Source: Clostridia bacterium (lineage in GTDB: Bacteria > Bacillota > Clostridia > Lachnospirales > Lachnospiraceae). Taken from it: a stretch of DNA of 64,000 bases. The stretch covers positions 83,779 through 147,778 of the forward strand of contig CAJTAK010000001.1 in assembly GCA_910574255.1 (NCBI GenBank), given 5' to 3'. Position numbers and translations under genes: made by a program. The notes beneath the pieces were generated by a model. The model was not told where the DNA came from. It worked only from the letters and a program-made list of their open reading frames with translations, and ran no database searches. Of this stretch, positions 10,829 to 29,359 are shown one piece after another. Position 1 is the first letter of the stretch. The number at the start of each line of letters is the position of its first letter.

Positions 10829-10846
10829 AGGGGAGTGGGAAATAAG

Positions 10847-11896
10847 ATGAAAGATAAAAAGTCAAAGAGCCTGCCTGCGGCAGAAGTATCTCTGTTTTGC
10901 CAGCAGGCGGCAATGATACTGAAAGCCGGAATTCCGCTGTATGACGGGATGGAGGTTCTGTACCGCAATTATAAAGAGACACCCTACGCAGGAGCCTTTC
11001 AGAAGATTTATGAGGGCGTTCGGGATGGGGGCACGCTGTATGAGGGTGTGAAAGCGGCGGGATTTTTCCCTAAATATATGGTACATATGGTACATGTGGG
11101 AGAGACATCAGGGGAGCTTGATCAAGTGCTGGAATCTCTGGGAGACTACTATGAACGCGAGAGCAGAATGCAGGCATCTATTCGAAGTGCCGTCGTCTAC
11201 CCCCTGATTTTGGTGGTGCTGATGACAGTGGTGATGGCAGTGCTGGTGATTCGGGTGCTGCCCATCTTCACGGAAGTATTTTTGAGCCTGGGAACGGGCC
11301 TGGCAGGGACAGAGGCGGCAGTCTTATCCGGCGGTCTGGCGGCGGGACGCATCGTATTGGCGGCAGCGGCCGTATTGCTGACCTTTGTGCTTCTGTTGTT
11401 TCTTATCTGGAGTGCCGGCGGAAAGCGGATCCTCCTGCGGGCCAGTCAGATTCTTCCGCCGGTCCGCCGGCTTTTGGACAATCAGACGGCTCAGCGGTTT
11501 GCGGAAGTGATTGCCATGGTTCTGGCAAGCGGCTATCATCTGGAACATGCCTTGGAGCTGTTACCGGATCTGCTGCCGGATAAGCGTAATATTCGAAAGG
11601 CCAAAAAGTGCCTGGCATACATGGAGCAAAACGGTGACTTTGCGGCAGCGGTGGAACAGGCAAGTATCTTTCACCCTCTTCATGAAAAGATGATCCGCGT
11701 GGGCGTGGAGTCCGGCCAGACAGATCGGGTGATGGAACGGATTGCCGGAATCTATGAGATAGAAGTAGACGAGGGCATCCACCGATTGGTCTCCTGGATC
11801 GAGCCGGCACTGGTGGCGGTGCTGACCCTGATCATTGGCGGAATCTTATTGTCTGTCATGCTGCCGCTGGTGAGTATTATGATGTCCATTAGTTGA
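10847..11896 (+). CDS. Type II secretion / type IV pilus platform protein (GspF/PilC/ComGB family)
   Basis: T2SSF-domain motifs (…LKAGIPLYDGMEVL… and a repeated second half) and 3 TM segments. ATG at 10847; the track's 10835 start is a GTG. Confidence 0.8.
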   Translation: MKDKKSKSLPAAEVSLFCQQAAMILKAGIPLYDGMEVLYRNYKETPYAGAFQKIYEGVRDGGTLYEGVKAAGFFPKYMVHMVHVGETSGELDQVLESLGDYYERESRMQASIRSAVVYPLILVVLMTVVMAVLVIRVLPIFTEVFLSLGTGLAGTEAAVLSGGLAAGRIVLAAAAVLLTFVLLLFLIWSAGGKRILLRASQILPPVRRLLDNQTAQRFAEVIAMVLASGYHLEHALELLPDLLPDKRNIRKAKKCLAYMEQNGDFAAAVEQASIFHPLHEKMIRVGVESGQTDRVMERIAGIYEIEVDEGIHRLVSWIEPALVAVLTLIIGGILLSVMLPLVSIMMSIS

Positions 11897-11919
11897 CCGA
11901 TGGGAACAGGAGGGAACCC

Positions 11920-12258
11920 ATGCACTTATATAAAAGAAAAAAGAAGCATTTTATACGCTGGGTGCTGGTCCTGGGAATCTTTTTCCTGGCAGTCCTTTTT
12001 CTGGCCGCAGGCAGCAAGCGGATGGAAGAGACAGCCTGGAATGAGCAGCAGGAACTCCTCTCGGATGCGATTAATCAGGCTGTGGTAAACTGCTATGCCA
12101 TGGAGGGCAGGTATCCGGAAAGCATACAGTACCTGATAGACAATTACGGGATACAGGTTGACTTTGACAAATATGCCGTCAGCTATGAGATATTTGCGGA
12201 AAATATAAAGCCTCGGGTGAAAGTGATTCGTTTAGGAGAGGCAGGGGATGGAGAATGA
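11920..12258 (+). CDS. Small single-TM protein, minor pilin/ComGF-like candidate
   Basis: MHLYKRKKKHFIRWVLVLGIFFLAVLFLAAG: basic N-terminus followed by a TM helix. RBS AGGAGGGA upstream of the ATG at 11920. First of four small overlapping genes between GspF and the ATPase. Confidence 0.5.
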   Translation: MHLYKRKKKHFIRWVLVLGIFFLAVLFLAAGSKRMEETAWNEQQELLSDAINQAVVNCYAMEGRYPESIQYLIDNYGIQVDFDKYAVSYEIFAENIKPRVKVIRLGEAGDGE

Positions 12259-12737
12259 GCATGAGAGAGAGAAGACATGGGGTGAACGGACTGCTCACAC
12301 TTCTGATTTACGGACTCTTTGCCCTGTTTTCGCTGCTTCTGGTGGTGGTTGGGGCGAGGGTTTACCGAAATATCGTCTCGGCAGGCAATGCCAATACCCA
12401 GGTACGCTCATCCCTGTCCTATGTGGCGAATAAGGTTCGGATGAGTACCCGGGCGGCGGGGACAGTCCGGCTTTGGGAGCAGGACGGAATAGAAGTGCTG
12501 GTTCTTGAGTCCGGAACAGAGGGGTATGAGACCCGGATCTATTACTGTGACGGCGTTCTCAGGGAAGTATATCAGGCGGCGGATCAGCCCTTTTCTCCGG
12601 AGATGGGTGAGAAGCTTATGGAGATCCCGGAGTTTCACATAGAGGAGACGGAAAACGGACATCTGGTTATGCATACAACGGATGCGGCAGGGAATCAGCA
12701 CAGCCTGCATCTGTATATAGAGGGGAAATCAGTATGA
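12255..12737 (+). CDS. Pseudopilin-like small protein (non-canonical prepilin signal)
   Basis: RRHGVNGLLTLLIYGLFALFSLLLVV: a basic residue followed by Gly then a hydrophobic helix, but no Glu at +5. The ATG overlaps the upstream stop (ATGA), suggesting translational coupling. Confidence 0.5.
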   Translation: MSMRERRHGVNGLLTLLIYGLFALFSLLLVVVGARVYRNIVSAGNANTQVRSSLSYVANKVRMSTRAAGTVRLWEQDGIEVLVLESGTEGYETRIYYCDGVLREVYQAADQPFSPEMGEKLMEIPEFHIEETENGHLVMHTTDAAGNQHSLHLYIEGKSV

Positions 12738-13186
12738 AAATAGCGGAAAAGAGAAATCCGGCACTGGTGGAACTGGTTCTGGTGATTCTGTTCTTTGCTC
12801 TATCCTCCGTAGTGCTGGTCCAGGTTTTTGTAAAAGCACATCAGGTGAGTCAGGAGAGCCAGGCCCAGACCCTGGGCTTAATCTTGTCTGAGGATCTGTT
12901 GGAGCAGTGGAAAGAGACACCGGCCAGTCCGGAACTGCTGTTTTCTCCGGAGAACGGCTGGAGAGAAGAAAAGACCAGAGGCAGCGTTCGGACTTTTCTG
13001 TCAGGCTGCACGGAAAGCATGGAGCTGTCTGCCCCGGAAGATGCGGCCTATGAGATTCGGACAGAGTTGTGGAATGAAGCGACAGAGGCGGGCGTGTTAT
13101 ACCATATCCGGGTATTGATTACCGGTGTGGGGGACGGAAAGCTTAAAACAGAGCTTGAGACGGCCAGGTATGTGCCGGAAGCATAA
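12734..13186 (+). CDS. Pseudopilin-like small protein
   Basis: KRNPALVELVLVILFFALSSVVLV: a class-III-like signal with Glu in the helix but Asn/Pro in place of Gly. Start overlaps the upstream stop (ATGA). Confidence 0.5.
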   Translation: MKIAEKRNPALVELVLVILFFALSSVVLVQVFVKAHQVSQESQAQTLGLILSEDLLEQWKETPASPELLFSPENGWREEKTRGSVRTFLSGCTESMELSAPEDAAYEIRTELWNEATEAGVLYHIRVLITGVGDGKLKTELETARYVPEA

Positions 13187-13207
13187 GCGGGACAGAAAGG
13201 ATCAGAT

Positions 13208-13672
13208 ATGAGAGCGAAGACAGACAGGTGGGAGGGACCGCCGGAACAAAAGGAGGGGGTTCGGGGTATATCCAGAGGGGCCGGGGTAGGAATGGCATCC
13301 ATTCTGCTGATAGTAATGGTGCTGGCCTTTACAACGTTCGGTGTGCTTTCCCTGGTATCCGCCATGACGGATGTGAGGATGAGCCGCAAGTCCCTTGCCA
13401 CAGCCGCCGCCTACTATCAGGCGGAGGAAGAGTTACAAGAGCAGCTGGCACAGCTTGATGCGGAACTTCTGGCGGGCACGGCGGAGATACCCCAGCAGGG
13501 ATTGTGGGAGCTTAAGGCGGACGTACAGGAGATTCAGCAGCTTCTTCTGATCGTAGAGTGTAAGGAACCGTCCGAGGGAGAGGGACGCTATCAGGTTCTC
13601 TGGCAGCGTCTTGTAAATACAGTGGAATGGAATCCGGGACCGGGAGTCAATATTTGGGATGGAGGAATGTGA
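13208..13672 (+). CDS. Small single-TM protein of the filament operon
   Basis: A TM helix ASILLIVMVLAFTTFGVLSLVSAMTDV followed by a coiled-coil-like region. The start is ambiguous: 13208 or an internal Met near 13292. Confidence 0.45.
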   Translation: MRAKTDRWEGPPEQKEGVRGISRGAGVGMASILLIVMVLAFTTFGVLSLVSAMTDVRMSRKSLATAAAYYQAEEELQEQLAQLDAELLAGTAEIPQQGLWELKADVQEIQQLLLIVECKEPSEGEGRYQVLWQRLVNTVEWNPGPGVNIWDGGM

Positions 13673-13673
13673 G

Positions 13674-14735
13674 ATGAGTATACAGATACAGGAGATCTTA
13701 AAGACGGGGTTGGAAATGGGAGGCTCGGATATCTTTGTGATTCCGGGGTCTCCGATAAGCCTGAAAAGGGGAGGAGAGATCTTTCCGATCACCTCAGATC
13801 GGGTGATGCCGGATTCTTCGAAAGAACTGTTGCAGCAGATCTATCAGCTTGCCAATCGTGATATTGAAGAGCTGGAAAGAAGAGGGGACGACGATTTCTC
13901 CTTTTCTGTAAAAGGTGCCGGACGGTTCCGGTGCAATGCCTATAAGCAGAGAAGCTCTCTGGCAGCCGTTCTTCGAATCGTAACATTTGGGCTGCCTGAC
14001 AGTGAACGGATGCATATTCCCCAGGCGGTCATTGATCTCTATCGCCAGAAGAACGGCATGATTCTGGTTACCGGCCCGGCCGGAAGCGGAAAAACTACGA
14101 CGCTGGCCTGCCTGATAGACCAGATTAATCAAAAGCGGAGCGGACATATTATCACCATCGAGGATCCCATCGAGTATATTCACTCCCATCAGAAATGCCT
14201 GGTAAGCCAGAGGGAGATTGACCTGGATACGGAGAGTTACGAGACTGCCCTGCGGGCGGCTCTTCGCCAGACACCTGATGTGATACTTTTAGGTGAGATG
14301 CGGGATTTTGAAACCATTCAGACTGCCCTGACGGCGGCGGAGACGGGACAGCTGCTCCTGTCAACCCTGCATACCATCGGTGCGGCGAAGACCATAGACC
14401 GGATTGTGGATGTATTTCCCGCAGGGCAGCAGGCCCAGGTGCGGGTACAGCTTTCCATGGTGCTGCGGGCAGTCGTATCCCAGCGGCTTTTGCCTGTAGT
14501 TGACGGCGGGCTGGAACCGGTATTCGAGATTATGATTGTAAACCCGGCCATTCAGAACATGATTCGGGAGGGCAAGATACACCAGATGGATAACGTGATA
14601 TATTCCGGAGGAGATGCGGGGATGCGGACCATGGACAGTGACATCCTCAGGCTTTACCGGGCGGGGAGAATTACAAAAGAGACTGCATTGACCTATGCGG
14701 TCAACCCGGAACTTCTGGGGCGGAAACTTTCTTAA
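13674..14735 (+). CDS. pilT: PilT-family type IV pilus ATPase (retraction-type, about 355 aa)
   Basis: PilT_N-like start (…GGSDIFVIPGSPISLKRGGEIFPI…). Walker A GPAGSGKTTTL, Asp box IITIEDPIEY, Walker B DVILLGEMRD, His box LSTLHT. The ATG at 13674 follows RBS GGAGGA; the track start is 13659. Confidence 0.85.
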   Translation: MSIQIQEILKTGLEMGGSDIFVIPGSPISLKRGGEIFPITSDRVMPDSSKELLQQIYQLANRDIEELERRGDDDFSFSVKGAGRFRCNAYKQRSSLAAVLRIVTFGLPDSERMHIPQAVIDLYRQKNGMILVTGPAGSGKTTTLACLIDQINQKRSGHIITIEDPIEYIHSHQKCLVSQREIDLDTESYETALRAALRQTPDVILLGEMRDFETIQTALTAAETGQLLLSTLHTIGAAKTIDRIVDVFPAGQQAQVRVQLSMVLRAVVSQRLLPVVDGGLEPVFEIMIVNPAIQNMIREGKIHQMDNVIYSGGDAGMRTMDSDILRLYRAGRITKETALTYAVNPELLGRKLS

Positions 14736-14825: not shown

Positions 14826-15341
14826 ATGCAGATGAGCAGTGAATATATCAGTATAGCAGCCTCCAGTGTTGTCCGGCTCTGCTGTGACAGATTTGAGAGC
14901 GGGGACTGGAGCGGCAGATTTTATACAAGGTATCAGGAGAAGCCGGTAAGCTTTCGGAATACGGGGGAGCTGCTGGAGCGATTGGACGGATTTTATAACT
15001 GGCTGGGGTATCCCCAGGCATCCATGGAAAACCGCAGTTTTCGGAAGAAACCCTCCGAAAGGAGAGTTCTCCAGGAGACGGCTTCCCCACAGGAAGCCAG
15101 AATAAAGCAAAAAGGAGAACGAAGCATAGTGGTAAATGAAGAAGCGATGAACAAACATCAGGGTGAAAAGGCAACTTTCGTGGTACGTATTCAATATCGT
15201 CAGAATGCAAGCTGGCAGGGCCAGGTGACCTGGGCAGAGAAGAATAAGACCGTTCCTTTCCGCAGTGCCCTTGAATTGCTGAAGCTGATAGACAGTACAC
15301 AAGAAGCACCGGAAGAGAGTTGGGATAGGGGTGACGAATAG
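14826..15341 (+). CDS. Hypothetical protein (171 aa)
   Basis: ORF only. Long antisense ORFs overlap it, but operon context with the downstream gene (a 2-nt gap) favours the + strand. Confidence 0.4.
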   Translation: MQMSSEYISIAASSVVRLCCDRFESGDWSGRFYTRYQEKPVSFRNTGELLERLDGFYNWLGYPQASMENRSFRKKPSERRVLQETASPQEARIKQKGERSIVVNEEAMNKHQGEKATFVVRIQYRQNASWQGQVTWAEKNKTVPFRSALELLKLIDSTQEAPEESWDRGDE

Positions 15342-15343
15342 CT

Positions 15344-15859
15344 ATGACAGGAAAAGATCTGAGAAAGCTGGGACGCTCCCAGCTGTTGGAGCTTTTGGTG
15401 GCTCAGGCGAAAGAGATGGAAAGCCTGAAAGAGCGTCTGGCGGAAGCGGAAGCACAGATGGAGAAGCGTCAGATCGCCATTGATGAAGCCGGTTCCATAG
15501 CAGAAGCTTCTCTGGCCTTAAGCGGGATTTTTGAGGCGGCCGAGGAGGCTGTGTCCCAGTATATGGAGAACATCAAGGACCTGAGCGACAGGCAGCAGAA
15601 AGTCTATGTGCAGAGAGAACAGGAAAACAGAAAAAAAGCAGATGAAATTTTGAAAAAGGCTCAAAGAGGAGCCGACCTGCTTCTGAACAGTGCCCGGGAG
15701 GAATGCCGGAGACTGGAGGAGGACACCCGTAAGCAGTGCCGGAGACTGGAAGAGGACACTCGTAAGCGGTGCGAGAATATGGTAAGTTCTGCAAAAAAAA
15801 AGGAAGCAACCAGTGATGTGATAAGCTTGCCGCTGCGGCAGGGAGGGTTTCGTTCGTAA
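15344..15859 (+). CDS. Coiled-coil protein with tandem CRRLEEDTRK repeat
   Basis: Highly charged helical sequence with an internal 11-aa tandem duplication (ECRRLEEDTRKQCRRLEEDTRKRC). Confidence 0.5.
   Translation: MTGKDLRKLGRSQLLELLVAQAKEMESLKERLAEAEAQMEKRQIAIDEAGSIAEASLALSGIFEAAEEAVSQYMENIKDLSDRQQKVYVQREQENRKKADEILKKAQRGADLLLNSAREECRRLEEDTRKQCRRLEEDTRKRCENMVSSAKKKEATSDVISLPLRQGGFRS
15704..15769 (+). repeat. 33-bp direct tandem repeat (2 copies) inside the coiled-coil gene
   Basis: tgccggagactggaggaggacacccgtaagcag and tgccggagactggaagaggacactcgtaagcgg. Confidence 0.8.
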
Positions 15860-15874
15860 GCTTCCGAAGATGCA

Positions 15875-16471
15875 GTGGGGATGATTATGAAAAAAAATAG
15901 TGCAGTCGAGGTGCCGGAGCTCTCCCAGTTGGAGAAAGAGCTGAATAGAGTAAAGTATAAGAAGCGTTACAAGAGCGTGCTGACAAGCACGATCAGTACA
16001 CTGATTGTAGTGGCGGCCATAGCCGTTCTGATTGCAACGCTGCTGATGCCGGTGCTGCAGATATATGGAACAAGTATGAGCCCTACGTTATATGACGGCG
16101 ATATCATCGCCACCATAAAAACCACAGAATTTGAACAGGGAGATGTGGTGGCGTTTTATTATAACAATAAGATTCTTGTGAAACGTGTAATAGCCATGTC
16201 CGGCGAATGGGTGGATATGGATGAGGATGGAAACGTATATGTGAATGATGTGCTGCTGGATGAACCCTATCTGGTGGAACGGGCCGTAGGCGAGTGTGAC
16301 ATTAAGCTTCCCTATCAGGTTCCGGAGAATCGCATCTTCGTCATGGGCGATCACAGAAGCGTTTCCGTGGACAGCCGGAGTACAACCGTAGGCTGTGTGG
16401 CTGAAGAGCAGTTGGTAGGAAGATTGTTATTCCGGGTGTGGCCCCTGAAAGATATAGGGCCGGTGGGATAA
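15875..16471 (+). CDS. lepB: Signal peptidase I (LepB/S26A type)
   Basis: An N-terminal TM segment, then the catalytic Ser box IYGTSMSPTL, GDHRSVSVDSR and the C-terminal GRLLFRVWP. Confidence 0.85.
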   Translation: MGMIMKKNSAVEVPELSQLEKELNRVKYKKRYKSVLTSTISTLIVVAAIAVLIATLLMPVLQIYGTSMSPTLYDGDIIATIKTTEFEQGDVVAFYYNNKILVKRVIAMSGEWVDMDEDGNVYVNDVLLDEPYLVERAVGECDIKLPYQVPENRIFVMGDHRSVSVDSRSTTVGCVAEEQLVGRLLFRVWPLKDIGPVG

Positions 16472-16502: not shown

Positions 16503-19500
16503 ATGGAGTCTTCGATTCTGAAGAAAGCGGGAAAGTTCCTGCGTGAACAAGGGAAAAATAATCGGTGGAGAAAGATCCTGACAGTACTGGGTGCGATCGT
16601 GGTGTTTGTGACAGCATATATACTGTTGATGCCTGCGGTTGCCCTAGAACATAAGAGTGTATGCGGACTGGAGGAACATACCCATACAGAAGAGTGTTAC
16701 GGCCAGGCAGCAGTCTGCGGTAAAGTGGGAGCCGGGGATGAGAGCGAAGAACCGGTAACCCTTGAATTTGTCTGCACATTTCCGGAGGAACTGCATGTTC
16801 ATACCAGAGAATGTTATGACGGAGAAGACAATCTGATCTGTGGTTATGCGGATTATGCGGTCCATGAGCATACGCAAGGCTGTTATGAGGATGGCAGGCT
16901 GGTATGTCCCCTTGAAGAGATCGAGGAACACGAGCATACGGAAAGCTGTTACCGGGTCAATGACAGCGGATATATCTGCGGCCAGGAAGAGGCGGAAGCC
17001 CATACTCACGCAGATGCCTGCTATACAGAGCATCGGGAGCTTACCTGTGAGGAAGAAGAAAGGGAGGGCCATACCCATACAGATGACTGTTACACAGAAG
17101 AATGGGTGACCGTCTGCGGCCTGGAGGATGATCCCGAACATGTCCATGACGAATATTCCTGCTATGAAGTCAGCAGGACACTTACCTGCCAGGAAGAGGA
17201 AAGGGAGGGACACCAGCATGGAGACTCCTGCTACCATGTGGAAAGTGAACTGACCTGCGGCAAAGAAGAGAACTTAAACGGCCATAAGCATACGGAAAGC
17301 TGCCGTGGAGTGGTGAAAGAACTGGTTTGCGGCAAGGATGAGGTCATCCTGCATGAGCATACGGCAGAAGACGGCTGTTATGAGGCAGTCATGGATAATG
17401 ACGGAAACCAGATGCAGGATGAGAACGGCGAGCTCCTTTGGAGACTGGTGTGCGATAAGTTAGAGGTGCTGGAGCACGTACACGACAACGGGTGCTATCA
17501 GGAGCATGCACATACGGAGGAATGCTTTGCGGAAGATTTGATCTGCGGCAAGGAAGAGCATGTACATACGGAGGAATGCTTTGAGGGAACGGTTTACTGC
17601 GGTCTGGAGACGCATACCCATACAGAGGAATGCTATGTAGTAAATGAAGCAGGGGAAAAGGTTCTGAACTGCGGCCTGGAGGAGCATGAACACAGCTTTG
17701 CCTGCTATATCGGACCGGAGGTTTCAGAGGAAGACAGAGAGCGGATTCTCTATGTGGATCAGTTGATTGATGAACTTCCCTCATATGAAGAGATTGGCAT
17801 GGAGCTGGCGGCCTATGAGGAAGCGGGGGATGATGAGGGATACGAGGAGTATTATCTTGATACTGCGTTCTGGGCAGAGATTAGCTATCGTTATTATGAA
17901 GATTTGGATGAATTACAGAAGTATGTGGTCAATGGACCAAAGCTTTTAGAAATGAGTTCATTGTGGGAAGCTTCAACCATGGCACTGGACAATACAGCCA
18001 GTGAATGGAAAGTGACATCTGTCAATCAGATGACAGCTAATAGCAATGATAATAAGTGTGCCTTATTTCATGGAGATAATAAATCAATAAGGGATATAAG
18101 CACGTCAACGTTTCTATATTGGAGCGGATGCGTAGTCGGCTGGCAGAATGAACGCTATGAAGTTATTAAGCTGTTGAAGAATGGTGAGAGCAAAGCCAAT
18201 GAGAAGATACCAGAGGGAGGATGTATACTTTTCTTCTATGGGGACGAGGTGAAAGCTTATAAAGTGGGGGACATTGTAGAATTTGCATTAACAAAACCCT
18301 TTAACGAATTGCCTCAAGGAGCCGTAAGAGGAGGATATGGCACGGTATTCATAGGCGATACTCTAATAGCCCCCAAAGAACCCAAGGATAATCAGGTGAC
18401 AACTGTTTCGGACAGGGCGAGCACAGCCGGGCTGATTAACATCAACCTCTACGATTATGGAAGCAATATCAATGATCTTTATAAAAGCGATCACCGGTAT
18501 CCGGGATTTCAGGATGACGGCGGAACGAAAACGATCGATTTAAATAGTGGCAGTCTATGGGGAGCGAAAGGTTCTTACAATTTTGGCGGAAATATTGTTG
18601 CTGATTTGAATACCGGGTTTAGTCTTATCAATCAGGGCGGGCTGATCAATGCCACAGTGGGCGGTGCAAATACCCCCCTTCATGGAGTGGATGAAAATCA
18701 CCCAAGTCCGATGAATCCCAATCTGGGAGAGGATGGCTATCCTGAACTGAAAGAGGGCGGGATATCCCTGGGCTACTTATTCAGTAATAGTGCTTATGCT
18801 ACACGGAAGAACCGTGACGGGCTGGATGGACTGTTCCGTTATGACGAGACTACAGGGGAATACAGCTTTGACAGCCGCAGCAATTTTGCGGAGTTTGATG
18901 CGGCCAGCAATCAGTTTATTGTATATGATGCATTGCTGTCGCCTAATTACATGATGTATCCCTTTGGAAACTTCCTGCCTTTCAGCAAGATTAATACAGA
19001 AACCACCCAGGCCAGTGAGATTAATCGGGATTACTTCCGAATCATTGCGGCGACTGCGTCAAAAAAAGCAAAAGAGACAACCGATGGGAATCTGAAGACG
19101 GCTTACGAAACCCTGAGCAGAAATCTGGAAACATTTGTGGTGCAGATGGACGAAAAATGCGGTTCCAAAGATTGGGGCGGTATAGAAGCAGTCAGTGCCT
19201 ACTTTGCCACATCCGGTATTCCCCGGACCTTTACGAAAGAGGAACTGGCGAAGATATACTCCGTTGACTATGACGAGGCAAAGAATTTCTTCTTTGGCAT
19301 GAGCATGGAGATGGATTTTTCACAGCCGGTAGAGGGCCTGACCGGTCTGACGAATGATATTCCCATGGAATTTAATTTTGCCGGTGATGATGATGTGTGG
19401 ATCTATATAGATGAGATGCTGTACCTGAATCTGTCCGGTATTCATCGTCATGTGGGTGGCAAGATTGATTTTGTAAATGGAAGAATTTACTATTATGATT

Positions 19501-21812
19501 TGACCGTAGAGGCAGGAGATATAACAACAAGTCCCGATCAGACAGATACTTTCGAGCAGGTTATCAGGAGGAGCATGAAAGCGGCCGGAAAGACGGAATC
19601 GGAGATTGTGGCGGCTCTGGATGCAACCCTGAAAAAGGAAAATGGAGTTTATACCACATTTAAGGATAACTCAGCTCATAATTTCAAGTTTTATTATATG
19701 GAGCGTGGTGCCGGTTCCGGTGTGTGCAAGATAAATTTCAACTTCCCATTGCTGGAGAAGAACGCCCTCGCTCTGGGTAAGTCTCTGAGTGTTGACAACG
19801 GGGAAGTGGAAGATCTGTTGGGCAATCCGGACTTCCTGTTCCAGGTATTGGCAGCAAACAGCAATAATCAGAAGCCGGGTGAAAATGAACCGGAAGAACT
19901 CTTCATCAAAAAGGGCACGGCGTACAACGTTTATCGTCCCCGCTGCGGAATGGACACTTCAGAGGAACACCGACACAATGGGGACTGTTATGTGCAGTGC
20001 AAAATGGCGGCATCCGATGAACATCGGCACAGCGGAAAGTGCTATGGAGATAATCCGGCAAGAACGGGTATCACAGGGGAAGGCGGCATTATTACCCTGA
20101 AAAAGGATGAATGTGCAGTGTTCCCGGAACTTTCGGTAATAAGCGGCGGATATTACATTCGGGAACTTTTTGACAGCAGTTCCATTGATCAGTATGCGGA
20201 TGTGCAGGGAGGAGGCAGTTCCACCACTGACCGTAATGATATTCATGTAGGAGATAAGACTTTCGTAGGAAAAGAGACGGAAATTTACCATATGCTGAAC
20301 GGCAGCACGTTCTTTGCTTTTGATAATAAAGTGAAAACTACAAAGCTGGGCAGACTGAAGATTACTAAGGAATTGGTAATAGGAGAGGTGGATGCAGAAA
20401 GTTCGGAAGAGACATTCCGCATAGAAGTGCAGTTAAGCGGCACGAAGCTTCCGGTAGGTACATCCTACACGGTAACAGGTGCCGACGGAACAGAAGAGAC
20501 AAGAACCGTAGAAGAGGAGGGTATTATTCTCTTAAAGGGCGGTGAGACGGCACTGATTGAGAAGATTCTGGCAGGTACTGAGTATACCATTCAGGAGGAT
20601 CCGGCATCCACAGAGGGGTATCAGGTAGATTATACGCCGCCCACTATGGGAACCAAGGTGGCAGGGGATGAAGCCCATTACGGAAAGCCCTATGTGAAAG
20701 GAATTGTCAGCATCTATGATGAGGATGAAACCAAAATTTCTACCACAATAACGAATACAACCAAAGGCACGGGACTGGCGATACCGGTTCATAAGGTGCT
20801 CAGTAATCCTGATGGTAACAGCCATGCATACAGATTCCAACTGGTAGAGTTGGACGGCATACGGGGTAATGCAGTAGAGGACGGAAGAAAGGGAGAGGTT
20901 TCCCTTGTGTTTGAAAAGGGCACGGCTGATAGGGCTTTAGAACAGGAAAAGAGATTTGCTCCGATTCTGTATCTGACCAAGAATCTGAAAGACGGAGAGA
21001 CGGCAACGTATTATTACCAGATCACTGAGCTTGCAGAGGAGACTGAGACTGAAAAAGATCCGACGGTACGATATGACGAGACAGCCTATACGGTGGAAGT
21101 TCGGGTTACCAGAAAGAATGAGACCGTGACTGTGGATGAGGTTCTCATTCATAAAGAGGGGATGGAACCGACGAAGGTTCCCCTTACTCCGGAAGAAAAC
21201 GGAATTGTCACATTCGCAGGCGATAAGAGTCCGCTGACATTTAAGAATACACTGCTCCATGATCTGACAGTGCGGAAGCTGGCATCCGGCGGAAACAGCA
21301 GCGAAGCCACATTCAAGTTCGACATAGAACTGACGGGAAGTAATAAAACGGTAATCGTAGACGGTACGTACCCCTATGAGATTGAAAGGGTTAATGACAA
21401 CCTGGAATCCGAGATACAGACAGGAGAGGTTGCATTCCAAAGTGGAAAGGCATCTATAGAGCTTCGTTCAAAAGATACCCTGACCATCAAGGGTCTGCCC
21501 TACGGAGTAAGCTGGAAAGTAGTGGAGACTACCATTGACGGATATTATGTGGGCCATATCACGGGAGAAGATCCGGTACTGGCAGTTGATGACAGGAAGC
21601 AGGATGAAAATGAGGGGGCCGAAGCCAGCGGTGAACTGACAGAGACCACAGACAGCGTAACGTTCATTAACCGAACCACCTATGAACTTCCGGAATCCGG
21701 AGGGCCGGGTACAAACTTATATACAATGGCAGGCATCAGCTTGTTGCTGATGGCGGGCCTGATGTATAGAAAAAAAATCAGGGAAAGGAGGGCGGGTTCC
21801 TCCAGGAACTGA
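16503..21812 (+). CDS. Giant LPXTG-anchored surface adhesin (1769 aa): Cys/His tandem-repeat region, PA14/fibro-slime-like domain and Cna-B/pilin-isopeptide-like domains; probable pilus tip protein
   Basis: RBS AAAGGAGG. An N-terminal TM/signal segment. About 15 repeats of C-x4-H-x-H-x3-C-Y. The motif GDDDVWIYIDEMLYLNLSGIHRHVGG (fibro-slime/PA14-like). Repeated beta-sandwich-like stretches. A C-terminal sorting signal LPESGG plus a hydrophobic segment plus RKKIRERR. Confidence 0.85.
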   Translation: MESSILKKAGKFLREQGKNNRWRKILTVLGAIVVFVTAYILLMPAVALEHKSVCGLEEHTHTEECYGQAAVCGKVGAGDESEEPVTLEFVCTFPEELHVHTRECYDGEDNLICGYADYAVHEHTQGCYEDGRLVCPLEEIEEHEHTESCYRVNDSGYICGQEEAEAHTHADACYTEHRELTCEEEEREGHTHTDDCYTEEWVTVCGLEDDPEHVHDEYSCYEVSRTLTCQEEEREGHQHGDSCYHVESELTCGKEENLNGHKHTESCRGVVKELVCGKDEVILHEHTAEDGCYEAVMDNDGNQMQDENGELLWRLVCDKLEVLEHVHDNGCYQEHAHTEECFAEDLICGKEEHVHTEECFEGTVYCGLETHTHTEECYVVNEAGEKVLNCGLEEHEHSFACYIGPEVSEEDRERILYVDQLIDELPSYEEIGMELAAYEEAGDDEGYEEYYLDTAFWAEISYRYYEDLDELQKYVVNGPKLLEMSSLWEASTMALDNTASEWKVTSVNQMTANSNDNKCALFHGDNKSIRDISTSTFLYWSGCVVGWQNERYEVIKLLKNGESKANEKIPEGGCILFFYGDEVKAYKVGDIVEFALTKPFNELPQGAVRGGYGTVFIGDTLIAPKEPKDNQVTTVSDRASTAGLININLYDYGSNINDLYKSDHRYPGFQDDGGTKTIDLNSGSLWGAKGSYNFGGNIVADLNTGFSLINQGGLINATVGGANTPLHGVDENHPSPMNPNLGEDGYPELKEGGISLGYLFSNSAYATRKNRDGLDGLFRYDETTGEYSFDSRSNFAEFDAASNQFIVYDALLSPNYMMYPFGNFLPFSKINTETTQASEINRDYFRIIAATASKKAKETTDGNLKTAYETLSRNLETFVVQMDEKCGSKDWGGIEAVSAYFATSGIPRTFTKEELAKIYSVDYDEAKNFFFGMSMEMDFSQPVEGLTGLTNDIPMEFNFAGDDDVWIYIDEMLYLNLSGIHRHVGGKIDFVNGRIYYYDLTVEAGDITTSPDQTDTFEQVIRRSMKAAGKTESEIVAALDATLKKENGVYTTFKDNSAHNFKFYYMERGAGSGVCKINFNFPLLEKNALALGKSLSVDNGEVEDLLGNPDFLFQVLAANSNNQKPGENEPEELFIKKGTAYNVYRPRCGMDTSEEHRHNGDCYVQCKMAASDEHRHSGKCYGDNPARTGITGEGGIITLKKDECAVFPELSVISGGYYIRELFDSSSIDQYADVQGGGSSTTDRNDIHVGDKTFVGKETEIYHMLNGSTFFAFDNKVKTTKLGRLKITKELVIGEVDAESSEETFRIEVQLSGTKLPVGTSYTVTGADGTEETRTVEEEGIILLKGGETALIEKILAGTEYTIQEDPASTEGYQVDYTPPTMGTKVAGDEAHYGKPYVKGIVSIYDEDETKISTTITNTTKGTGLAIPVHKVLSNPDGNSHAYRFQLVELDGIRGNAVEDGRKGEVSLVFEKGTADRALEQEKRFAPILYLTKNLKDGETATYYYQITELAEETETEKDPTVRYDETAYTVEVRVTRKNETVTVDEVLIHKEGMEPTKVPLTPEENGIVTFAGDKSPLTFKNTLLHDLTVRKLASGGNSSEATFKFDIELTGSNKTVIVDGTYPYEIERVNDNLESEIQTGEVAFQSGKASIELRSKDTLTIKGLPYGVSWKVVETTIDGYYVGHITGEDPVLAVDDRKQDENEGAEASGELTETTDSVTFINRTTYELPESGGPGTNLYTMAGISLLLMAGLMYRKKIRERRAGSSRN
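16656..17724 (+). repeat. Tandem array (about 15 units) of the Cys/His motif C-x4-H-x-H-x3-C-Y, encoded by imperfect 60-90-bp DNA repeats
   Basis: Units such as CGLEEHTHTEECY, CTFPEELHVHTRECY, CEEEEREGHTHTDDCY, CGKEEHVHTEECF and CGLETHTHTEECY. Two more units lie near 19940-20060 (CGMDTSEEHRHNGDCY, ASDEHRHSGKCY). Confidence 0.85.
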
Positions 21813-21880: not shown

Positions 21881-23395
21881 ATGAAACGAGTGAAAAAGTT
21901 GTTGAGCCTTGTTCTGGCTATGATGCTGGTACTGGCGATGGGAAGCACGGTTATGGCTTCAGGTCCGAATGAAGAGGAGCCTGTTCCCACAAATGGAAGT
22001 ATTAAGATTGAGAATGCGATTCCGGGACAGAGCTACAGCATTTATCGGGTTTTTGATTTAAGCTATTCAGAAGAAAATAAGGCATATTCCTATACTGTAA
22101 ACAACGACTGGCTTGGTTTTGTTACAGGTGAGGGTGCAGCTTATGTAACAGTAGAGACAATCGGAACAAACAATTATGTAACCTGGAAAGCAGATAAGAA
22201 CACAGACAAAGATGCTGCAGATTTTGCAAAGCTTGCATTAGCATATGCAAAAGGTAATATGATATCTGCTGTTGGTACAGAAACGGCAGATGGAGAAGGC
22301 GAGACAACTACAGTCGAGTTTACAGGTCTGGGGCTTGGGTATTATTTGGTTGACTCTAGTACAGGTGCGTTATGTTCATTGAATACAGCAACGCCAGATG
22401 CAACAATTCAGGAAAAGAATGAAAAGACTACAGTTGAGAAAGAGGTTGAGGAACCTACGGCTTCTGTAGGAGATGAACTTCATTACACAGTAAAGATTAA
22501 CGTTAAGAGCGGTTCCGAAAAGTATATACTGCATGACAAAATGTCAGAAGGATTAACTTTTAATGCTGACTCTCTCAAGGTTACTCTGCTTGATCCTAAT
22601 GTGACAGATTTAACTGCGGGGGCGCCGGTAGATGCTGATAAGTATACATTATTAACCGAGACAGACGATGATGATACATTTGATGTTGTATTCAATGAAG
22701 CTTACTGTGAAACTTTAGCCCCCAACAGCACTCTTGTTATAACCTACACAGCTGAAATCAACGAGGGTGCGCTAATCGAAGATAAAGTAAATAATACTGT
22801 AAGACTTGATTTTGGTGAGAACAACCGTACGGAAGATAAGACCGTAGAAACGAAGCTTTTTGATTTGGGTATCCAAAAAGTTGATGGCAGAGATAATAAA
22901 GGATTGGCAGGTGCTGTCTTTACACTTTCAAAAGAACTGTCTCTGGCAGATGGAAGTGATACAGCAGAAAAAGTTGGAGTAACTTTTGCGTATAATGATG
23001 AGAGTAAATGTTACGCAGCTACCGGAACAGGTGCGGCAAGCGAAATTAATGTTGAATCGGACGGTTCTCTTAAATTAAAAGGGCTGGGTGCCGGAACTTA
23101 TTATTTACATGAGGTAAAGGCACCAGATGGATATAATGCTTTAAAAGAAGACATAAAAATCGTAATTAATGAGAATGGAAATGTTACTGTAGTATCTAAA
23201 AAGCTGGACGAAAATGGTGTTGAGATGGATGAAGTAGAGACGGTTACAACAGTTACCGTTCAGAATATGACCGGTGCAGAGCTTCCTTCCACCGGTGGTA
23301 TCGGTACTACTATCTTCTACGTACTGGGCGGTATCCTGGTAGTTGGAGCTGGTATCATGTTAGTGGTAAAGAAACGCATGAGCAGTGAGAAATAA
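21881..23395 (+). CDS. LPXTG-anchored major pilin / fimbrial subunit (SpaA-like isopeptide-forming)
   Basis: Signal peptide MKRVKKLLSLVLAMMLVLAMG. Thr-rich beta-sandwich sequence. A C-terminal LPSTGG plus TM plus KKRMSSEK. Immediately followed by a class C sortase. Confidence 0.8.
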   Translation: MKRVKKLLSLVLAMMLVLAMGSTVMASGPNEEEPVPTNGSIKIENAIPGQSYSIYRVFDLSYSEENKAYSYTVNNDWLGFVTGEGAAYVTVETIGTNNYVTWKADKNTDKDAADFAKLALAYAKGNMISAVGTETADGEGETTTVEFTGLGLGYYLVDSSTGALCSLNTATPDATIQEKNEKTTVEKEVEEPTASVGDELHYTVKINVKSGSEKYILHDKMSEGLTFNADSLKVTLLDPNVTDLTAGAPVDADKYTLLTETDDDDTFDVVFNEAYCETLAPNSTLVITYTAEINEGALIEDKVNNTVRLDFGENNRTEDKTVETKLFDLGIQKVDGRDNKGLAGAVFTLSKELSLADGSDTAEKVGVTFAYNDESKCYAATGTGAASEINVESDGSLKLKGLGAGTYYLHEVKAPDGYNALKEDIKIVINENGNVTVVSKKLDENGVEMDEVETVTTVTVQNMTGAELPSTGGIGTTIFYVLGGILVVGAGIMLVVKKRMSSEK

Positions 23396-23521: not shown

Positions 23522-24337
23522 ATGAAGAAACACTTATCAAACATTATTTTAATAGTTATCCTGCTTGCAGGCTTGTCCTTGCTGCTGTACCCTACAGTCA
23601 GTGACTATTGGAACAAGTTTCACCAATCCCAGGCAATTGCCAGCTATGCGGAGGCCGTAGCGGATTTGGATGATGAGACCTATGAACAGTTGTGGAGTGA
23701 GGCTGTTGAGTACAATCAGTCTCTACGATCCAGGGCCAACCGATATCACCCCACAGAGGAAGAACATGCGGCATATGAAGCTTTGCTCAATGTTTCCGGT
23801 AATGGTATCATGGGTTACATTGAGATAGAGAGTATCAACTGCTATCTTCCCATTTATCATGGTGTGGAAGAGTCCGTGCTTCAGATTGCAGTGGGGCATA
23901 TAGAGGGAACCTCTCTGCCGGTAGGCGGACCGGGAAGTCACTGCGTATTGTCCGGTCATAGAGGTCTGCCATCCGCAAAGCTGTTTACGGATCTGGACCA
24001 GATGCGGGAGGGAGATGTTTTTGTCCTCCGGGTACTGGATGAGACTCTGACTTATGAAGTGGATCAGATCCGCATTGTTCTGCCGGAAGAGGTGAATGAT
24101 TTGGAACTGGTGGACGGGATGGATTACTGTACGCTGGTGACCTGTACGCCTTATGGCATCAACAGTCACCGTATGCTGGTGCGGGGACACCGGATTGACA
24201 ATCTGGCGGATGCGTCTTCCATTCGTGTAACGGCAGATGCCATGCAGTTAAGGCCGGTGCTTATCACGCCGATTTTAATGGTACCCATATTATTATTGTT
24301 GGTTATCTGGTTTCGAATTCGACGCCGAAGAAGATAG
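23522..24337 (+). CDS. srtC: Class C (pilus-polymerising) sortase
   Basis: An N-terminal TM segment, catalytic His in HIEGTSLPVG, the TLVTCTPYG active-site Cys motif, Arg in VRGHRI, and a C-terminal TM plus RIRRRRR lid/anchor. ATG at 23522 behind AAGGAGA. Confidence 0.85.
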   Translation: MKKHLSNIILIVILLAGLSLLLYPTVSDYWNKFHQSQAIASYAEAVADLDDETYEQLWSEAVEYNQSLRSRANRYHPTEEEHAAYEALLNVSGNGIMGYIEIESINCYLPIYHGVEESVLQIAVGHIEGTSLPVGGPGSHCVLSGHRGLPSAKLFTDLDQMREGDVFVLRVLDETLTYEVDQIRIVLPEEVNDLELVDGMDYCTLVTCTPYGINSHRMLVRGHRIDNLADASSIRVTADAMQLRPVLITPILMVPILLLLVIWFRIRRRRR

Positions 24338-24347
24338 AAAGAGAGGA

Positions 24348-25646
24348 ATGAGTATGAGAGGGAAATACAGAAAAAAAGTCTGGCTGTGTGCCGCACTGGC
24401 GGCTGTATTGTGTCTCACACTGATGCTGCCTCATAAGAACAGCCTAGCCAGAGTACTTCTTGATACAGAAAGAGAGAAAAACACTCTGAAAGTAAATAAA
24501 GAAAACTTAACCAGTGAAGATTTGCTGAAAGAAGATGCAAGTCTGGCCAACGCAGAGGTGCAGGTATATCTGTATAAACTGGCGACTGTGGATGAGTACG
24601 GACAATATACTCTGGTTGATGGATTCAAAGATCTGGCGGGTCAGCTTCCGGAGGGGGTGCTTGACATCGAGGCACTGAACAGGACAGTGTTTGAGGCAAC
24701 CTCCGACCAGTGGGAGACAACGGCACACTGGGTATCAGAGCTTTTAGGACTTCCCGCATTTACCAGTGAGAAGAATGAAAATAATGAAGATAGTGATGAT
24801 AAGGAAACTCCTCCGGAGGGAGAGCAGAAGTCAGACGGAAAGAAGTTTTACATCCCAGAGAATGAAACTTTAATCGGTCTGCCATGTTATGATAAAACCA
24901 TACTGGCAGGAGACGGGATAGACTATGATGTAGACCAGGGGCTCTATCTGGTCTGGGCAAAGCCTATTGTGACCGAAAAATATATGTACACATTTCTTCC
25001 TTACCTGGTATCCGTTCCGGACAATGCATATGGAAGAGAGGATGATCTCAATAAGGATTCCGATGATTGGAATTATAATGTCGTGGTAGATCTGAAGCCG
25101 GAACGTCAGGAACGCTATCTGGATCTGGAGATAGATAAGACCTTATTGAATTACCAGCCGACTTCCGGCAAGGCCATGTTTATATTTGAAATCAGGGCTG
25201 AGAAAGGGACGACGGAAGAGGGCGACCCAATCGTAGTGTTTCATGATGTGGTGGGTCTGGAATTCAACGGAGATGGCAACAAGAGTGTGCGGGTAAGGAA
25301 TATCCCGGCAGGCTCCAAAGTGACAATCACAGAGATCCGTACCGGTACAACTTACCGACTGGTTTCCAAAAAAGTAGTTCCGGCAGATGGGGTTACTCTG
25401 GGAACAACGGAGACGGCAGACGGTTTTGTGATAGACAGCCTGTCAGGCAAAGCGGACTGGATATCTTCCCAGGGAACCGAAGAGGGAGAGAATGAACTTG
25501 TAGCTAATGTATCATTTACCAATGATTACAGTGGAGAAGACGGGCCGAAGACAGATGGCATTGTAAATCAATTTACCCGGATTGACGGAGAGTGGAAGGG
25601 TGCACAGATTATAACAAATCAGGGAGGTGGAGCAGCCAATGAGTAA
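24348..25646 (+). CDS. Secreted protein of unknown function (432 aa) within the pilus/TasA locus
   Basis: An N-terminal signal peptide and no C-terminal sorting motif. Confidence 0.5.
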   Translation: MSMRGKYRKKVWLCAALAAVLCLTLMLPHKNSLARVLLDTEREKNTLKVNKENLTSEDLLKEDASLANAEVQVYLYKLATVDEYGQYTLVDGFKDLAGQLPEGVLDIEALNRTVFEATSDQWETTAHWVSELLGLPAFTSEKNENNEDSDDKETPPEGEQKSDGKKFYIPENETLIGLPCYDKTILAGDGIDYDVDQGLYLVWAKPIVTEKYMYTFLPYLVSVPDNAYGREDDLNKDSDDWNYNVVVDLKPERQERYLDLEIDKTLLNYQPTSGKAMFIFEIRAEKGTTEEGDPIVVFHDVVGLEFNGDGNKSVRVRNIPAGSKVTITEIRTGTTYRLVSKKVVPADGVTLGTTETADGFVIDSLSGKADWISSQGTEEGENELVANVSFTNDYSGEDGPKTDGIVNQFTRIDGEWKGAQIITNQGGGAANE

Positions 25647-26187
25647 AAAGCGATTATACCGCAGACGGACGGCTCTTCTGGCAGCCTTGGCCCTTGTGCT
25701 TCTGTTTGGTTCTACATTAAAGGATTCTCTGGCATACTTTACCACTTACACCAGGGTAAACGGCCACTGGCCGGTAACTTTCGGACCGGATACGGAGATT
25801 GAAGAAACGATCGAAGATCTGATTAAGAAGATCCAGATTGAAAATACAGGAGAGACAGACTGCTTTGTCCGGATAAGGGCGTATTTTGGAGAGGACATGG
25901 TTGTTCTTAAAAAGGTAGAGGAGGCGGATGCAAAGGATGGGGCTGCCCACTGGACACAGGACGGTGATTGGTGGTATTACAGTCAGGTCTTAAAGCCAGG
26001 GAAAAAGACATGTGAACTTGCTATGACCTTTGCACCACACCAAAATCTGCATCTCAATCCGGTTATTGATACATTCCATGTGGTGATTGTTCAGGAAACT
26101 GCACCGGTGCTTTACCGTACCAATCCGGACGGCACACGTACACCCTATGCGGAGTGGCCGGAACAGAATGAGGAGGCCGGATTATGA
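25639..26187 (+). CDS. TasA/camelysin (peptidase M73)-like secreted fibre protein with SipW-cognate-type signal peptide
   Basis: MSKKRLYRRRTALLAALALVLLFGSTLKDSLAYFTTYT resembles TasA/CalY signals (…GGGTFAFFSD). About 180 aa, as for camelysin. SipW is encoded 2.6 kb downstream. Confidence 0.55.
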   Translation: MSKKRLYRRRTALLAALALVLLFGSTLKDSLAYFTTYTRVNGHWPVTFGPDTEIEETIEDLIKKIQIENTGETDCFVRIRAYFGEDMVVLKKVEEADAKDGAAHWTQDGDWWYYSQVLKPGKKTCELAMTFAPHQNLHLNPVIDTFHVVIVQETAPVLYRTNPDGTRTPYAEWPEQNEEAGL

Positions 26188-27014
26188 AGAAGAAAAAGAA
26201 AAACAGATCCAGGGGTGCCTACACCACAGGAATTTTATTTGCGGTGGCAGTTCTTCTGCTCCTTGGAAGCGTAGCCGGCAGCAGTCAGGCGGCACTGACA
26301 TATTACAGCGAGAATTATTCGGCACAGCTTCAGACTTTCGATATTGGTGTCACCCTGGTGGAAAACGGCCGTGATGTGAGTTGGCGTAATTATACCCAGC
26401 GGGATGACAAATGGTATGAGGATGGCGTTGGTCTTCTGACTGATATGCTGTATGCCGGACCGAACGGAGAGCAGGAAGCACTTCAGTTGGAGACGTATTA
26501 TCCGGAGGTACTCTGTGTCAAAAACAGCGGAAATATCGACGAATATGTGAGAGTGTTGATTTACCGTTACTGGGTGGATGAAGAGGAGAGAGGCGATGGG
26601 ATCCCAGTTCCCATAGAGGATAGAAAGAAGAGAACGGATATTTCTCCGGGCTTTATTAAGCTGTCTCCCTGGAATGGCACGGAGACAGGGCAAAGCGGGA
26701 CCCTTTCTTACAATGGATGGGTGCTTGATGAGGCGGCCAGTACAAATGAGCGTATCGTTCTCTATTATACGGGGGTAGTAGGAACAGGAAAGACAACTCC
26801 CCCATTTATGGATGCACTGGCTATCAGTAAAGATGTAGAGAGTGAGTTCAGAATCTCGGATTCTGATGGAAAATATACTTACCAGAATGAAGAGTTTGTA
26901 TTAGAGGTTGAGGCGGATGCCGTGCAGACCCACAATGGGGCAGATGCTATCAAGAGTGCCTGGGGTGTTGACGTAATCGTAGACGCATCCGGCAATCTGA
27001 GTCTGAGGAGGTAG
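26184..27014 (+). CDS. Second TasA/camelysin-like protein with SipW-cognate-type signal peptide
   Basis: MKKKKKNRSRGAYTTGILFAVAVLLLLGSVAGSSQAALTYYSENY. Start overlaps the upstream stop. Confidence 0.5.
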   Translation: MKKKKKNRSRGAYTTGILFAVAVLLLLGSVAGSSQAALTYYSENYSAQLQTFDIGVTLVENGRDVSWRNYTQRDDKWYEDGVGLLTDMLYAGPNGEQEALQLETYYPEVLCVKNSGNIDEYVRVLIYRYWVDEEERGDGIPVPIEDRKKRTDISPGFIKLSPWNGTETGQSGTLSYNGWVLDEAASTNERIVLYYTGVVGTGKTTPPFMDALAISKDVESEFRISDSDGKYTYQNEEFVLEVEADAVQTHNGADAIKSAWGVDVIVDASGNLSLRR

Positions 27015-27019
27015 GGAAA

Positions 27020-28838: not shown

Positions 28839-29359
28839 AGAAAAAGGAAAAGCATTTTGAGCTGTCTTCTATATGCAGCGGTTTTGGATTGATTTTACTC
28901 CTGTTGGTTGTAGCTCTTTGCCTGCCGCTGACGGTGCCCCGTTTGCTGGGGTATGAGCTTTACGCTATTGTCAGCGGCAGTATGGAGCCGGCGATTTCCG
29001 TCGGCAGTGTAGTTTATGCCAAGCGGATTAATCCGCAGGAGATAGAAGCCGGCGATGTGATCGTATTTTATGGCGGTCATGATTCTTCCGCAGTCATTAC
29101 ACATCGGGCTGTGGAGAATCATAAGGAAGAGCAGGAACTTCTCACCAAAGGCGATGCAAATGCGGGAAACGATATGCTTCCCATTGCATACAATAATGTT
29201 ATCGGCAGGGTAGGACTGTCCGTTCCGATTCTGGGTATTCTGCTGCCATTGGTGACAGAGACTTCAGGAAAGCTTTACCTGGTGGGGATCCTTGGAGCAG
29301 GGGTTCTTTTCCGCATTCTGGGAAGCCGTCTGCGAGATGGAAGTGAGTCAGAAGGATAA
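28823..29359 (+). CDS. sipW: SipW-type signal peptidase (S26B, ER/archaeal type)
   Basis: An N-terminal TM segment, the catalytic motif AIVSGSMEP characteristic of SipW/Sec11-type peptidases, and a C-terminal TM segment. TTG start; no in-frame ATG. Confidence 0.8.
   Translation: MGDQLKKKEKHFELSSICSGFGLILLLLVVALCLPLTVPRLLGYELYAIVSGSMEPAISVGSVVYAKRINPQEIEAGDVIVFYGGHDSSAVITHRAVENHKEEQELLTKGDANAGNDMLPIAYNNVIGRVGLSVPILGILLPLVTETSGKLYLVGILGAGVLFRILGSRLRDGSESEG

Follow-up and report, generated by a model that had tools for sequence, protein, structure and literature searches.

We analysed a 64,000-nt stretch of DNA from a Clostridia bacterium of the Lachnospiraceae (contig CAJTAK010000001.1, positions 83,779 to 147,778 of the forward strand; hereafter the window) and found that the gene at 16503-21812 of its plus strand, which encodes a protein of 1769 amino acids, is well supported as that of an adhesin forming a sortase-assembled pilus subunit, and from its domains and gene neighbourhood we infer the tip position. 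As read from its sequence, the locus is a known kind of pilus with two undescribed additions, namely a family of tandem Cys-His-His-Cys (CHHC) repeats and the pairing of a conserved leader with a signal peptidase encoded directly upstream. The whole account developed below, in which a pilus tip subunit combines this leader and peptidase with a Ca-dependent lectin head and a metal-stabilised string of CHHC units, is one that we favour, though not strongly. The joint proposal that the repeats are a new extracellular family of metal-folded mini-domains, that leader and active peptidase form a sorting pair, and that both travel together in gut Clostridia is held more tentatively and falls short of being probable.

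The open reading frame (ORF) is uninterrupted and has the length given in the first-pass annotation, a reading of the letters of the window that had suggested the product to be a pilus tip adhesin. Public assemblies of Lachnospiraceae (Candidatus Merdisoma sp. JLR.KK006) contain an identical 1769-residue protein, labelled there no further than as an 'FctA domain-containing', a 'DUF7601 domain-containing' or a hypothetical protein. Several features expected of a tip pilin are present, namely a secretion signal, neighbouring genes for a major pilin and a class C sortase, and pilin-type immunoglobulin-like domains (20454-21674). In this C-terminal region, FctA and DUF7601 score above the Pfam cut-offs and DUF5979 is weak, NF033396 (pilus_ancill_1) and TIGR03786 of NCBIfam match partially, and the last domain resembles the C-terminal domain of the Streptococcus pyogenes tip pilin Cpa/AP1 (PDB 2xi9/4bug, E = 2e-4). 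The protein ends with a tripartite cell-wall sorting signal (21687-21809) made up of YELPESGG, a hydrophobic segment and an RKKIRERR tail; its motif, LPESG (21687-21701), has Ser for the Thr of the LPxTG found in orthologues and in the neighbouring backbone pilin, and the earlier label 'LPXTG adhesin' needs correction as to the motif. Downstream on the same strand follow the major (backbone) pilin with LPSTG (21881-23395; Pfam SpaA, GramPos_pilinBB and Gram_pos_anchor), which is of the SpaH/EbpB type (NF033902, 120.6 bits vs. a cut-off of 95), and the class C, pilus-polymerising sortase (23522-24337; Pfam Sortase; NF033745 class_C_sortase, 275 bits vs. a cut-off of 160), in which we found TLVTC and a C-terminal transmembrane segment. 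Related loci show the same gene order: among those with enough downstream DNA, a backbone-pilin homologue was found in 23 of 29 and a class C sortase in 10 of 11. The pilin-like beta-sandwich repeats, the position directly upstream of pilin and sortase and the tip-adhesin role, all proposed at first pass, are thereby supported.

The array occupies residues 54-402 (16662-17708) and consists of 14 complete and one partial CHHC unit of the form C-x(4-8)-H-x-H-x(3-5)-C-[YF], counted by regular expression. Fifteen H-x-H-x(3-5)-C-[Y/F/R] units lie at residues 59-402, of which 14 have a Cys 4-8 residues upstream; the partial unit, HAHTEECF (residues 335-342), lacks a first Cys of its own. The estimate of about 15 tandem units was therefore accurate, and the proposed motif C-x4-H-x-H-x3-C-Y stands except for its fixed x4, the spacing from the first Cys to the His being 4 to 8. 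Two further complete units, anticipated at about 19.95-20.06 kb, were located at 19944-20045 (residues 1148-1181), only three residues apart, where they form an insertion of ~35 residues in a loop of the next beta-sandwich domain (an alignment gap vs. orthologue P0125); since they are inserted into a loop of another domain, a unit appears to be self-contained. Of the 40 Cys residues of the adhesin, 30 fall within residues 54-401. The pattern H.H.{3,5}C[YF] has 16 non-overlapping matches in the protein vs. a mean of 0.008 in whole-protein shuffles, and 14 matches in the Cys/His-rich region alone vs. a mean of 0.04 in shuffles of that region; across the six frames and other ORFs of the window the motif is absent save for one isolated match. 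Recent repeat expansion at the DNA level was rejected, as Tandem Repeats Finder finds nothing in the adhesin gene, and the repeats are, to judge from this divergence, old. Strain-level change of copy number, a comparison that had been suggested at first pass, was likewise rejected, because all 12 full-length members listed of the 90%-identity cluster have 1769 residues. An AlphaFold 2 (AF2) model of the array has a predicted local distance difference test (pLDDT) score of ~85, with short strands and one-turn helices in each unit.

The repeat has no relative among described domains. The repeat region matched no family in Pfam or NCBIfam at permissive thresholds, the repeats matched nothing in the PDB by sequence at E ≤ 10, and a Foldseek search of the repeat model against the PDB gave a best E of 0.6 to 23-28 residues of heparinase, which is meaningless; nor did the units show a sequence or structural match to the known zinc-finger or zinc-ribbon families in Pfam and the PDB. 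Literature searches on the motif itself, on tip pilins with zinc or Cys-His repeats, and on zinc-binding repeats in LPXTG proteins turned up nothing relevant. In a HMMER scan with the array alone against 1.84 billion cluster representatives (50% identity clusters), we identified 3,295 clusters at E ≤ 1e-3, of which 2,094 remained at 1e-10 and 586 at 1e-30, and a word-indexed search with residues 1-420 gave 589 homologues. The best 144 array-bearing representatives have 9-45 units per protein and lengths up to 5,603 amino acids, and 111 of these 144 have an LPXTG-like end. By these comparisons, the CHHC repeat is a large, widespread and undescribed family in gut Clostridia with no domain-database or solved-structure relative; the array, called unusual at first pass, is so with respect to described domains and not with respect to its distribution.

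Copy number is far more variable in the wider family, where it ranges from 0 to 45 units per protein, than among close relatives of the window's protein at high identity. A query with residues 421-1146 identified 47 head homologues, in LPXTG proteins of 1000-1240 amino acids, and among these same-head orthologues, the ones whose N-terminus is intact have only 0, 2, 3 or 5 units and, in most cases, a leader of the same kind; it follows that the array is an optional add-on of variable length. Some array proteins are giants of 4,000-5,600 amino acids (P0216, P0230 and P0224), some of them with ordinary-looking signal peptides. An origin of the leader-plus-array region in mobile elements was considered and rejected: no match was found in the plasmid collection, and the only match in the phage collection (MT835974.1, 8184-8873, 28% identity) falls in a 14-kb contig from human faeces that is named 'Bacteriophage sp.', lacks annotation and is probably a bacterial fragment.

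The unit itself is strictly built. The consensus over 2,312 units is L-[IV]-C-G-x-x-E-x-E-[EG]-H-[TV]-H-[TSD]-[ED]-x-C-[YF]; 98% of them have a spacing of 3 between the second His and the second Cys, the spacing from the first Cys to the His is bimodal (4 or 7), and the commonest gap to the first Cys of the next unit is 8, so that four Cys/His ligands recur at fixed spacing in a mini-domain, C-x(4 or 7)-H-x-H-x3-C. In a set of 82 arrays with 654 units, the CHHC ligand positions account for 94% of the Cys and likewise for 94% of the His residues, and units average 23.7 residues with a net charge of about -4. Of the 82 arrays, 81 open with a first Cys, 75 close on a second Cys that no other Cys follows, and 69 contain an even number of Cys residues. 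An alternative definition of the unit, as H-x-H-x3-C plus the next Cys, was rejected because the arrays open and close on a first and a second Cys, respectively, and because the two internal units of the adhesin are so closely spaced. A unit of ~24 residues has only about three conserved hydrophobic positions, and this paucity together with the strict CHHC set is the signature of a metal-stabilised mini-domain, from which we infer one tetrahedral metal site per unit, most likely for Zn(II). Metal binding, raised as a possibility at first pass, is plausible, and the strict 2 Cys : 2 His stoichiometry favours it.

The second undescribed component is the leader (16503-16649, residues 1-49), which comprises a long basic n-region (ending in NNRWRK), a transmembrane helix (residues ~25-47) and the sequence LLMPAVALE, and for which AF2 predicts a helix at residues 3-47. 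The family motif is TxYALILPAITME, in which the adhesin reads LLMP-A-V-A-L-E. In the family logo, numbered from the Pro, conservation is 71% for W-22, 98% for T-7, 91% for Y-5, 92% for L-1, 100% for P0, 96% for A+1, 97% for T+3 and 95% for E+5, which as a sequence pattern goes far beyond the needs of a Sec signal peptide; no NCBIfam model matched the leader. Because the A-I-T of the family corresponds to a canonical Ala-X-Ala in this protein, cleavage is predicted after position +3 (Ala47), and the array starts about six residues past this site; in most family members it begins 6-8 residues after the conserved leader. The resemblance of the leader's LPAIT to a sortase site was rejected by reasoning, the spacing and the side of the transmembrane helix both being wrong. 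Scanning the GTDB species genomes with a degenerate DNA pattern for FCTTYALILPA, we found this exact peptide on at least 120 contigs, with hosts that include Lachnospiraceae, Oscillospiraceae, Faecalibacterium, Ruminococcus, Dorea acetigenes and Dubosiella muris; the leader-bearing ORFs at these loci have 0-21 units, and the complete ones among them mostly have LPxTG at their end.

Directly upstream of the adhesin gene lies a type I signal peptidase of the S26 Ser-Lys type (15887-16471, plus strand, the start coordinate being taken from the gene call in locus L001), with a Pfam Peptidase_S26 match at E = 6e-34 and a TIGR02227 score of 119.5 bits vs. a cut-off of 47. Its closest structure is Staphylococcus aureus SpsB (4wvg), and it also matches SipA (4n31, E = 6e-9) and LepA (4k8w, E = 2e-8). 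It has the Ser of SMSPT and the Lys of KRV, and among its homologues the catalytic Ser is present in 89 of 89 and the Lys in 90 of 91, with box E invariant. It shares with SipA and LepA the occurrence of an S26 fold within a sortase-pilus cluster, and lacks the loss of catalytic Ser and Lys that characterises them (PMC4049620); being of the bacterial TIGR02227 type, it is also not the SipW/archaeal-type peptidase that accompanies TIGR04088-type signals. Among 98 related loci with at least 650 nt upstream of the leader gene, 86 have a homologue of this peptidase (55-70% identity) directly upstream on the same strand, at a median gap of about 25 nt. The peptidase is also upstream in 3 of the 4 loci of orthologues with zero units (L010, L069 and L075), and arrays are found behind other signal peptides too, which together indicate that leader and array are separable modules. 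The backbone pilin of the window has an ordinary signal peptide. The conserved leader and its adjacent dedicated peptidase, which the first-pass annotation missed, may be the more informative feature of the locus.

Between the array and the pilin-type domains lie a helical linker (17763-17972, residues 421-490; helices at model residues 8-69 of an AF2 model of residues 421-1146) and a conserved head that spans residues ~500-1082. Its central region (18000-19244, residues ~500-914), delimited from homologues and AF2, has many invariant residues in the alignment, a pLDDT of mostly 80-97 and no assigned fold class. The remainder (19245-19748, residues ~915-1082) is a PA14/fibro-slime-like beta-sandwich that carries the motif GDDDVWIYIDEMLYLNLSGIH at residues 961-981 (19383-19445) and a GDDD that is invariant in the alignment of the window protein with 38 homologues. 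The fold is similar to the PA14 beta-sandwich; the adhesin reached 34.8 bits against TIGR02148 (Fibro_Slime; cut-off 45), with only 35 residues matched, and had no match to Pfam PA14. Fibro_Slime matches occur in 13 of 33 family members (best E = 3.5e-17), and together with the invariance of GDDD they uphold the earlier fibro-slime/PA14 assignment at the level of the fold, whereas by curated-model threshold it fails. In PA14 domains, sugar binding uses an acidic, Ca-binding motif of consecutive Asp residues. By analogy with PA14 lectins, Ca-dependent carbohydrate binding would be the most likely function of this head. In other members of the family the head differs. Among 33 complete leader-bearing proteins we found SpaA in 16, DUF7601 in 10, CHAP in 7, FctA in 5, Cna_B in 4, VWA, PA14 and NlpC/P60 in 3 each, collagen-binding domains in 2, and a thioester domain, CBM26 and a ricin-B lectin once each. 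Head domains, including PA14, VWA, CHAP, collagen-binding and CBM26, are thus swappable, as judged by domain content. The CHAP and NlpC/P60 domains among these 33 pilin-like proteins (loci L002-L121) are peptidoglycan-hydrolase heads, and such pili could attack or remodel the walls of other cells.

Taken together, these findings suggest the following mechanism. The precursor would enter the Sec pathway via its unusually long and sequence-conserved leader, which the upstream S26 peptidase would remove, with Ala-Val-Ala47 (A-I-T in the family) as the likely site. On the more tentative reading as a sorting pair, leader and peptidase would single out one protein in each cluster to be the tip subunit and pass it on to the pilus sortase. 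The class C sortase would cleave LPESG and join the adhesin to the first major pilin, so placing it at the distal end of the fibre. The PA14-like head would bind carbohydrate in the presence of Ca, as PA14 lectins do. Each CHHC unit would fold around one structural metal ion, most likely Zn(II), and the array would be a string of such mini-domains that extends the pilus tip outermost and by a variable length. The metal would in this way give a strict anaerobe the stabilisation that disulfides or isopeptide bonds provide elsewhere. Since the array is N-terminal in a tip pilin, it would be the most distal part, an extension beyond the head and not, as had been suggested at first pass, a stalk, which would sit between head and shaft. 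At the tip, the array could serve reach, shielding, metal- or redox-dependent contacts, or metal capture.

Several observations weigh against this account. The sorting motif of the adhesin scores just below the TIGR01167 cut-off (15.3 vs. 15.9 bits); the strict leader motif is absent from about half of the top array-bearing representatives, the listed examples having variant leaders or ordinary-looking signal peptides; and the upstream peptidase is missing in 12 of the 98 loci. Mechanically, no role is obvious for an extension that lies beyond the adhesive head at the N-terminus. The gut lumen is poor in free Zn and rich in sulfide, and the metal could be Ni, Co, Cu or Fe instead of Zn. The two Cys residues of each unit could also form a disulfide instead, and under this assumption the units would be disulfide-stapled loops whose H-x-H serves weak metal or ligand contacts or pH sensing. 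That the protein is extracellular, as its leader and sorting signal indicate, and that there are exactly two Cys per unit and mostly even Cys counts, could be expected of such loops. However, a loop needs neither an invariant H-x-H nor a fixed distance from it to the second Cys, and H-x-H is as invariant as the Cys residues; moreover, the hosts are strict gut anaerobes, in which extracellular disulfides are uncommon, and no thiol-disulfide oxidoreductase was seen among the neighbouring genes scanned (9.8-30.4 kb). We regard stapled loops as improbable.

A role mainly in metal capture or buffering, as a surface zincophore, a Ni/Co/Cu sponge or a detoxifier, would account for the 15-17 potential sites per protein, the very acidic units (a net charge of -4 each) and the wide variation of copy number, and would make the array not primarily structural. 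Yet the array is fused to many unrelated adhesive and enzymatic heads and pilin domains, same-head orthologues work with no units at all, a defined fold is suggested by the rigidity of the spacing and by the confidence of the AF2 model, which is high, and no metal transporter or metalloregulator was seen among the same neighbouring genes scanned (9.8-30.4 kb); we judge capture as the main function quite unlikely. The distal position expected from tip-pilin topology would bring the array into contact with other cells first, and Cys2His2 sites are sensitive to oxidation, which would suit a metal- or redox-switched interaction module, acting either as a Zn zipper between arrays (auto-aggregation), comparable to the Zn-dependent self-association of Aap/SasG G5-E repeats, or by oxidation that releases the metal and changes adhesion. 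The start on a first Cys, the end on a second Cys and the complete paired inserts are nevertheless easier to reconcile with sites completed inside one unit than with sites that two molecules share, and we consider a switch of this kind decidedly unlikely. The array might finally be part of the export signal, a pro-region for export competence or for docking of the peptidase or sortase that is removed or idle in the mature pilus. Its start shortly behind the conserved leader and the proximity of leader and array to a dedicated peptidase agree with a pro-region; the occurrence of leader and peptidase with zero units (L010, L069 and L075) and of arrays behind ordinary signal peptides and inside another domain does not, and this possibility appears very remote.

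Comparison with known systems separates what is shared from what is new. The FCT-type islands of S. pyogenes (Cpa/AP1, SipA/LepA, FctA/Spy0128 and SrtC) likewise have a signal-peptidase-family gene within the cluster, a backbone pilin, a pilus sortase and a tip adhesin whose C-terminal domains are of the isopeptide type and resemble those of Cpa and FctA. S. pyogenes SipA is essential for pilus polymerisation and has lost both catalytic residues, and the function of SipA/LepA-like proteins was unknown when a binding role was proposed, as no more than a proposal, in 2014 (PMC4049620). In contrast, the peptidase of the present locus retains Ser, Lys and box E in almost every homologue, and the conserved leader with which it is paired is confined to the tip protein; Cpa, which has a thioester head, is without a Cys/His array, and the hosts are gut Clostridia and not streptococci. 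The SipW systems with TasA or BsaA (TIGR04088-type signals) also tie a peptidase gene to substrates with a recognisable conserved N-terminal signal, but the adhesin-linked peptidase is of the bacterial Ser-Lys type (TIGR02227) and its leader motif is different. With respect to the PA14 lectins (Flo5, Epa and Cea1 of yeasts, MpIBP, Lap-type RTX adhesins and TIGR02148), the adhesin falls below the curated hidden Markov model (HMM) cut-off, Pfam PA14 matches 3 of 33 relatives and not the adhesin itself, and the domain is only one part of a conserved head that is much larger, at about 650 residues.

Two kinds of metal-dependent module bear comparison with the array. The CHHC zinc fingers (U11-48K, TRM13 and GTSF1 type) have the ligand order Cys-His-His-Cys in a mini-domain of roughly 20-25 residues. 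The ligand order is common to both, whereas the spacing in the array units is different and very tight (H-x-H, then x3-Cys), and the array units are without an HMM or structural match, extracellular, bacterial and in tandem up to 45. In Gram-positive cocci, the polyhistidine-triad (Pht) proteins and the G5-E repeats of Aap/SasG are surface-exposed repeated modules with a Zn-dependent function, the former through HxxHxH without Cys and the latter by binding Zn between molecules, again without Cys; neither has a sequence relation to the CHHC array.

Sortase pili are among the main colonisation organelles of Gram-positive bacteria, and those of the dominant gut Clostridia are almost unstudied. 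The general role of the adhesin is ordinary; its extracellular Cys2His2 array and its leader/peptidase pair are widespread, uncharacterised and directly testable, the cassette occurring in at least 120 GTDB species and the repeat module in over 3,000 clusters of proteins. Should the units bind zinc, they would represent a rare extracellular use of zinc-finger-like domains and an anaerobe's way to stabilise surface fibres, and adhesion would be tied to the availability of metal in the gut and to exposure to oxygen. If leader and peptidase are cognate, the SipA/LepA-like role in pilus assembly could be tested directly with an active-type peptidase that has an obvious substrate signal, and the pair would provide the first clear substrate logic for signal-peptidase homologues long known in Gram-positive pilus islands. 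The swappable heads make the family a catalogue of attachment targets of gut Clostridia.

The sortase gene is followed by a gene (24354-25646, plus strand) for a secreted protein of 430 residues, a possible accessory component with a weak DUF5979 match (Pfam, 24 bits vs. a cut-off of 25); it ends without an LPXTG-like motif, which one would expect in a basal pilin. A second fibre-like cluster follows shortly after the pilus genes, at 25627-29359, with two proteins that weakly match the BsaA family (SipW-dependent biofilm matrix protein, TIGR04090), a secreted protein of 257 residues, a MucBP-containing membrane protein and a SipW/archaeal-type peptidase (TIGR02228, 96.5 bits). Given this BsaA-like/SipW-type cluster, the window holds two different peptidase-plus-fibre systems side by side. 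After the fibre clusters, a PspA/IM30 family protein is encoded at 29702-30382 (E = 6e-44).

Upstream of the pilus signal peptidase, two ORFs of 171 residues without a Pfam match occupy 14826-15859, and the second of these looks coiled-coil-like. They separate the peptidase gene from the T2SSE ATPase of a gene set resembling type IV pili or type II secretion systems (9821-14735), which also encodes a transglutaminase-like protein, a T2SSF platform protein and small pseudopilin-like proteins (DUF4860). A Clostridium perfringens preprint links type IV pilus genes to secretion of the SipW-dependent matrix protein BsaA (10.1101/2024.11.04.621531), and the combination of type IV pilus-like genes with a BsaA-like/SipW cluster is present in the window too.

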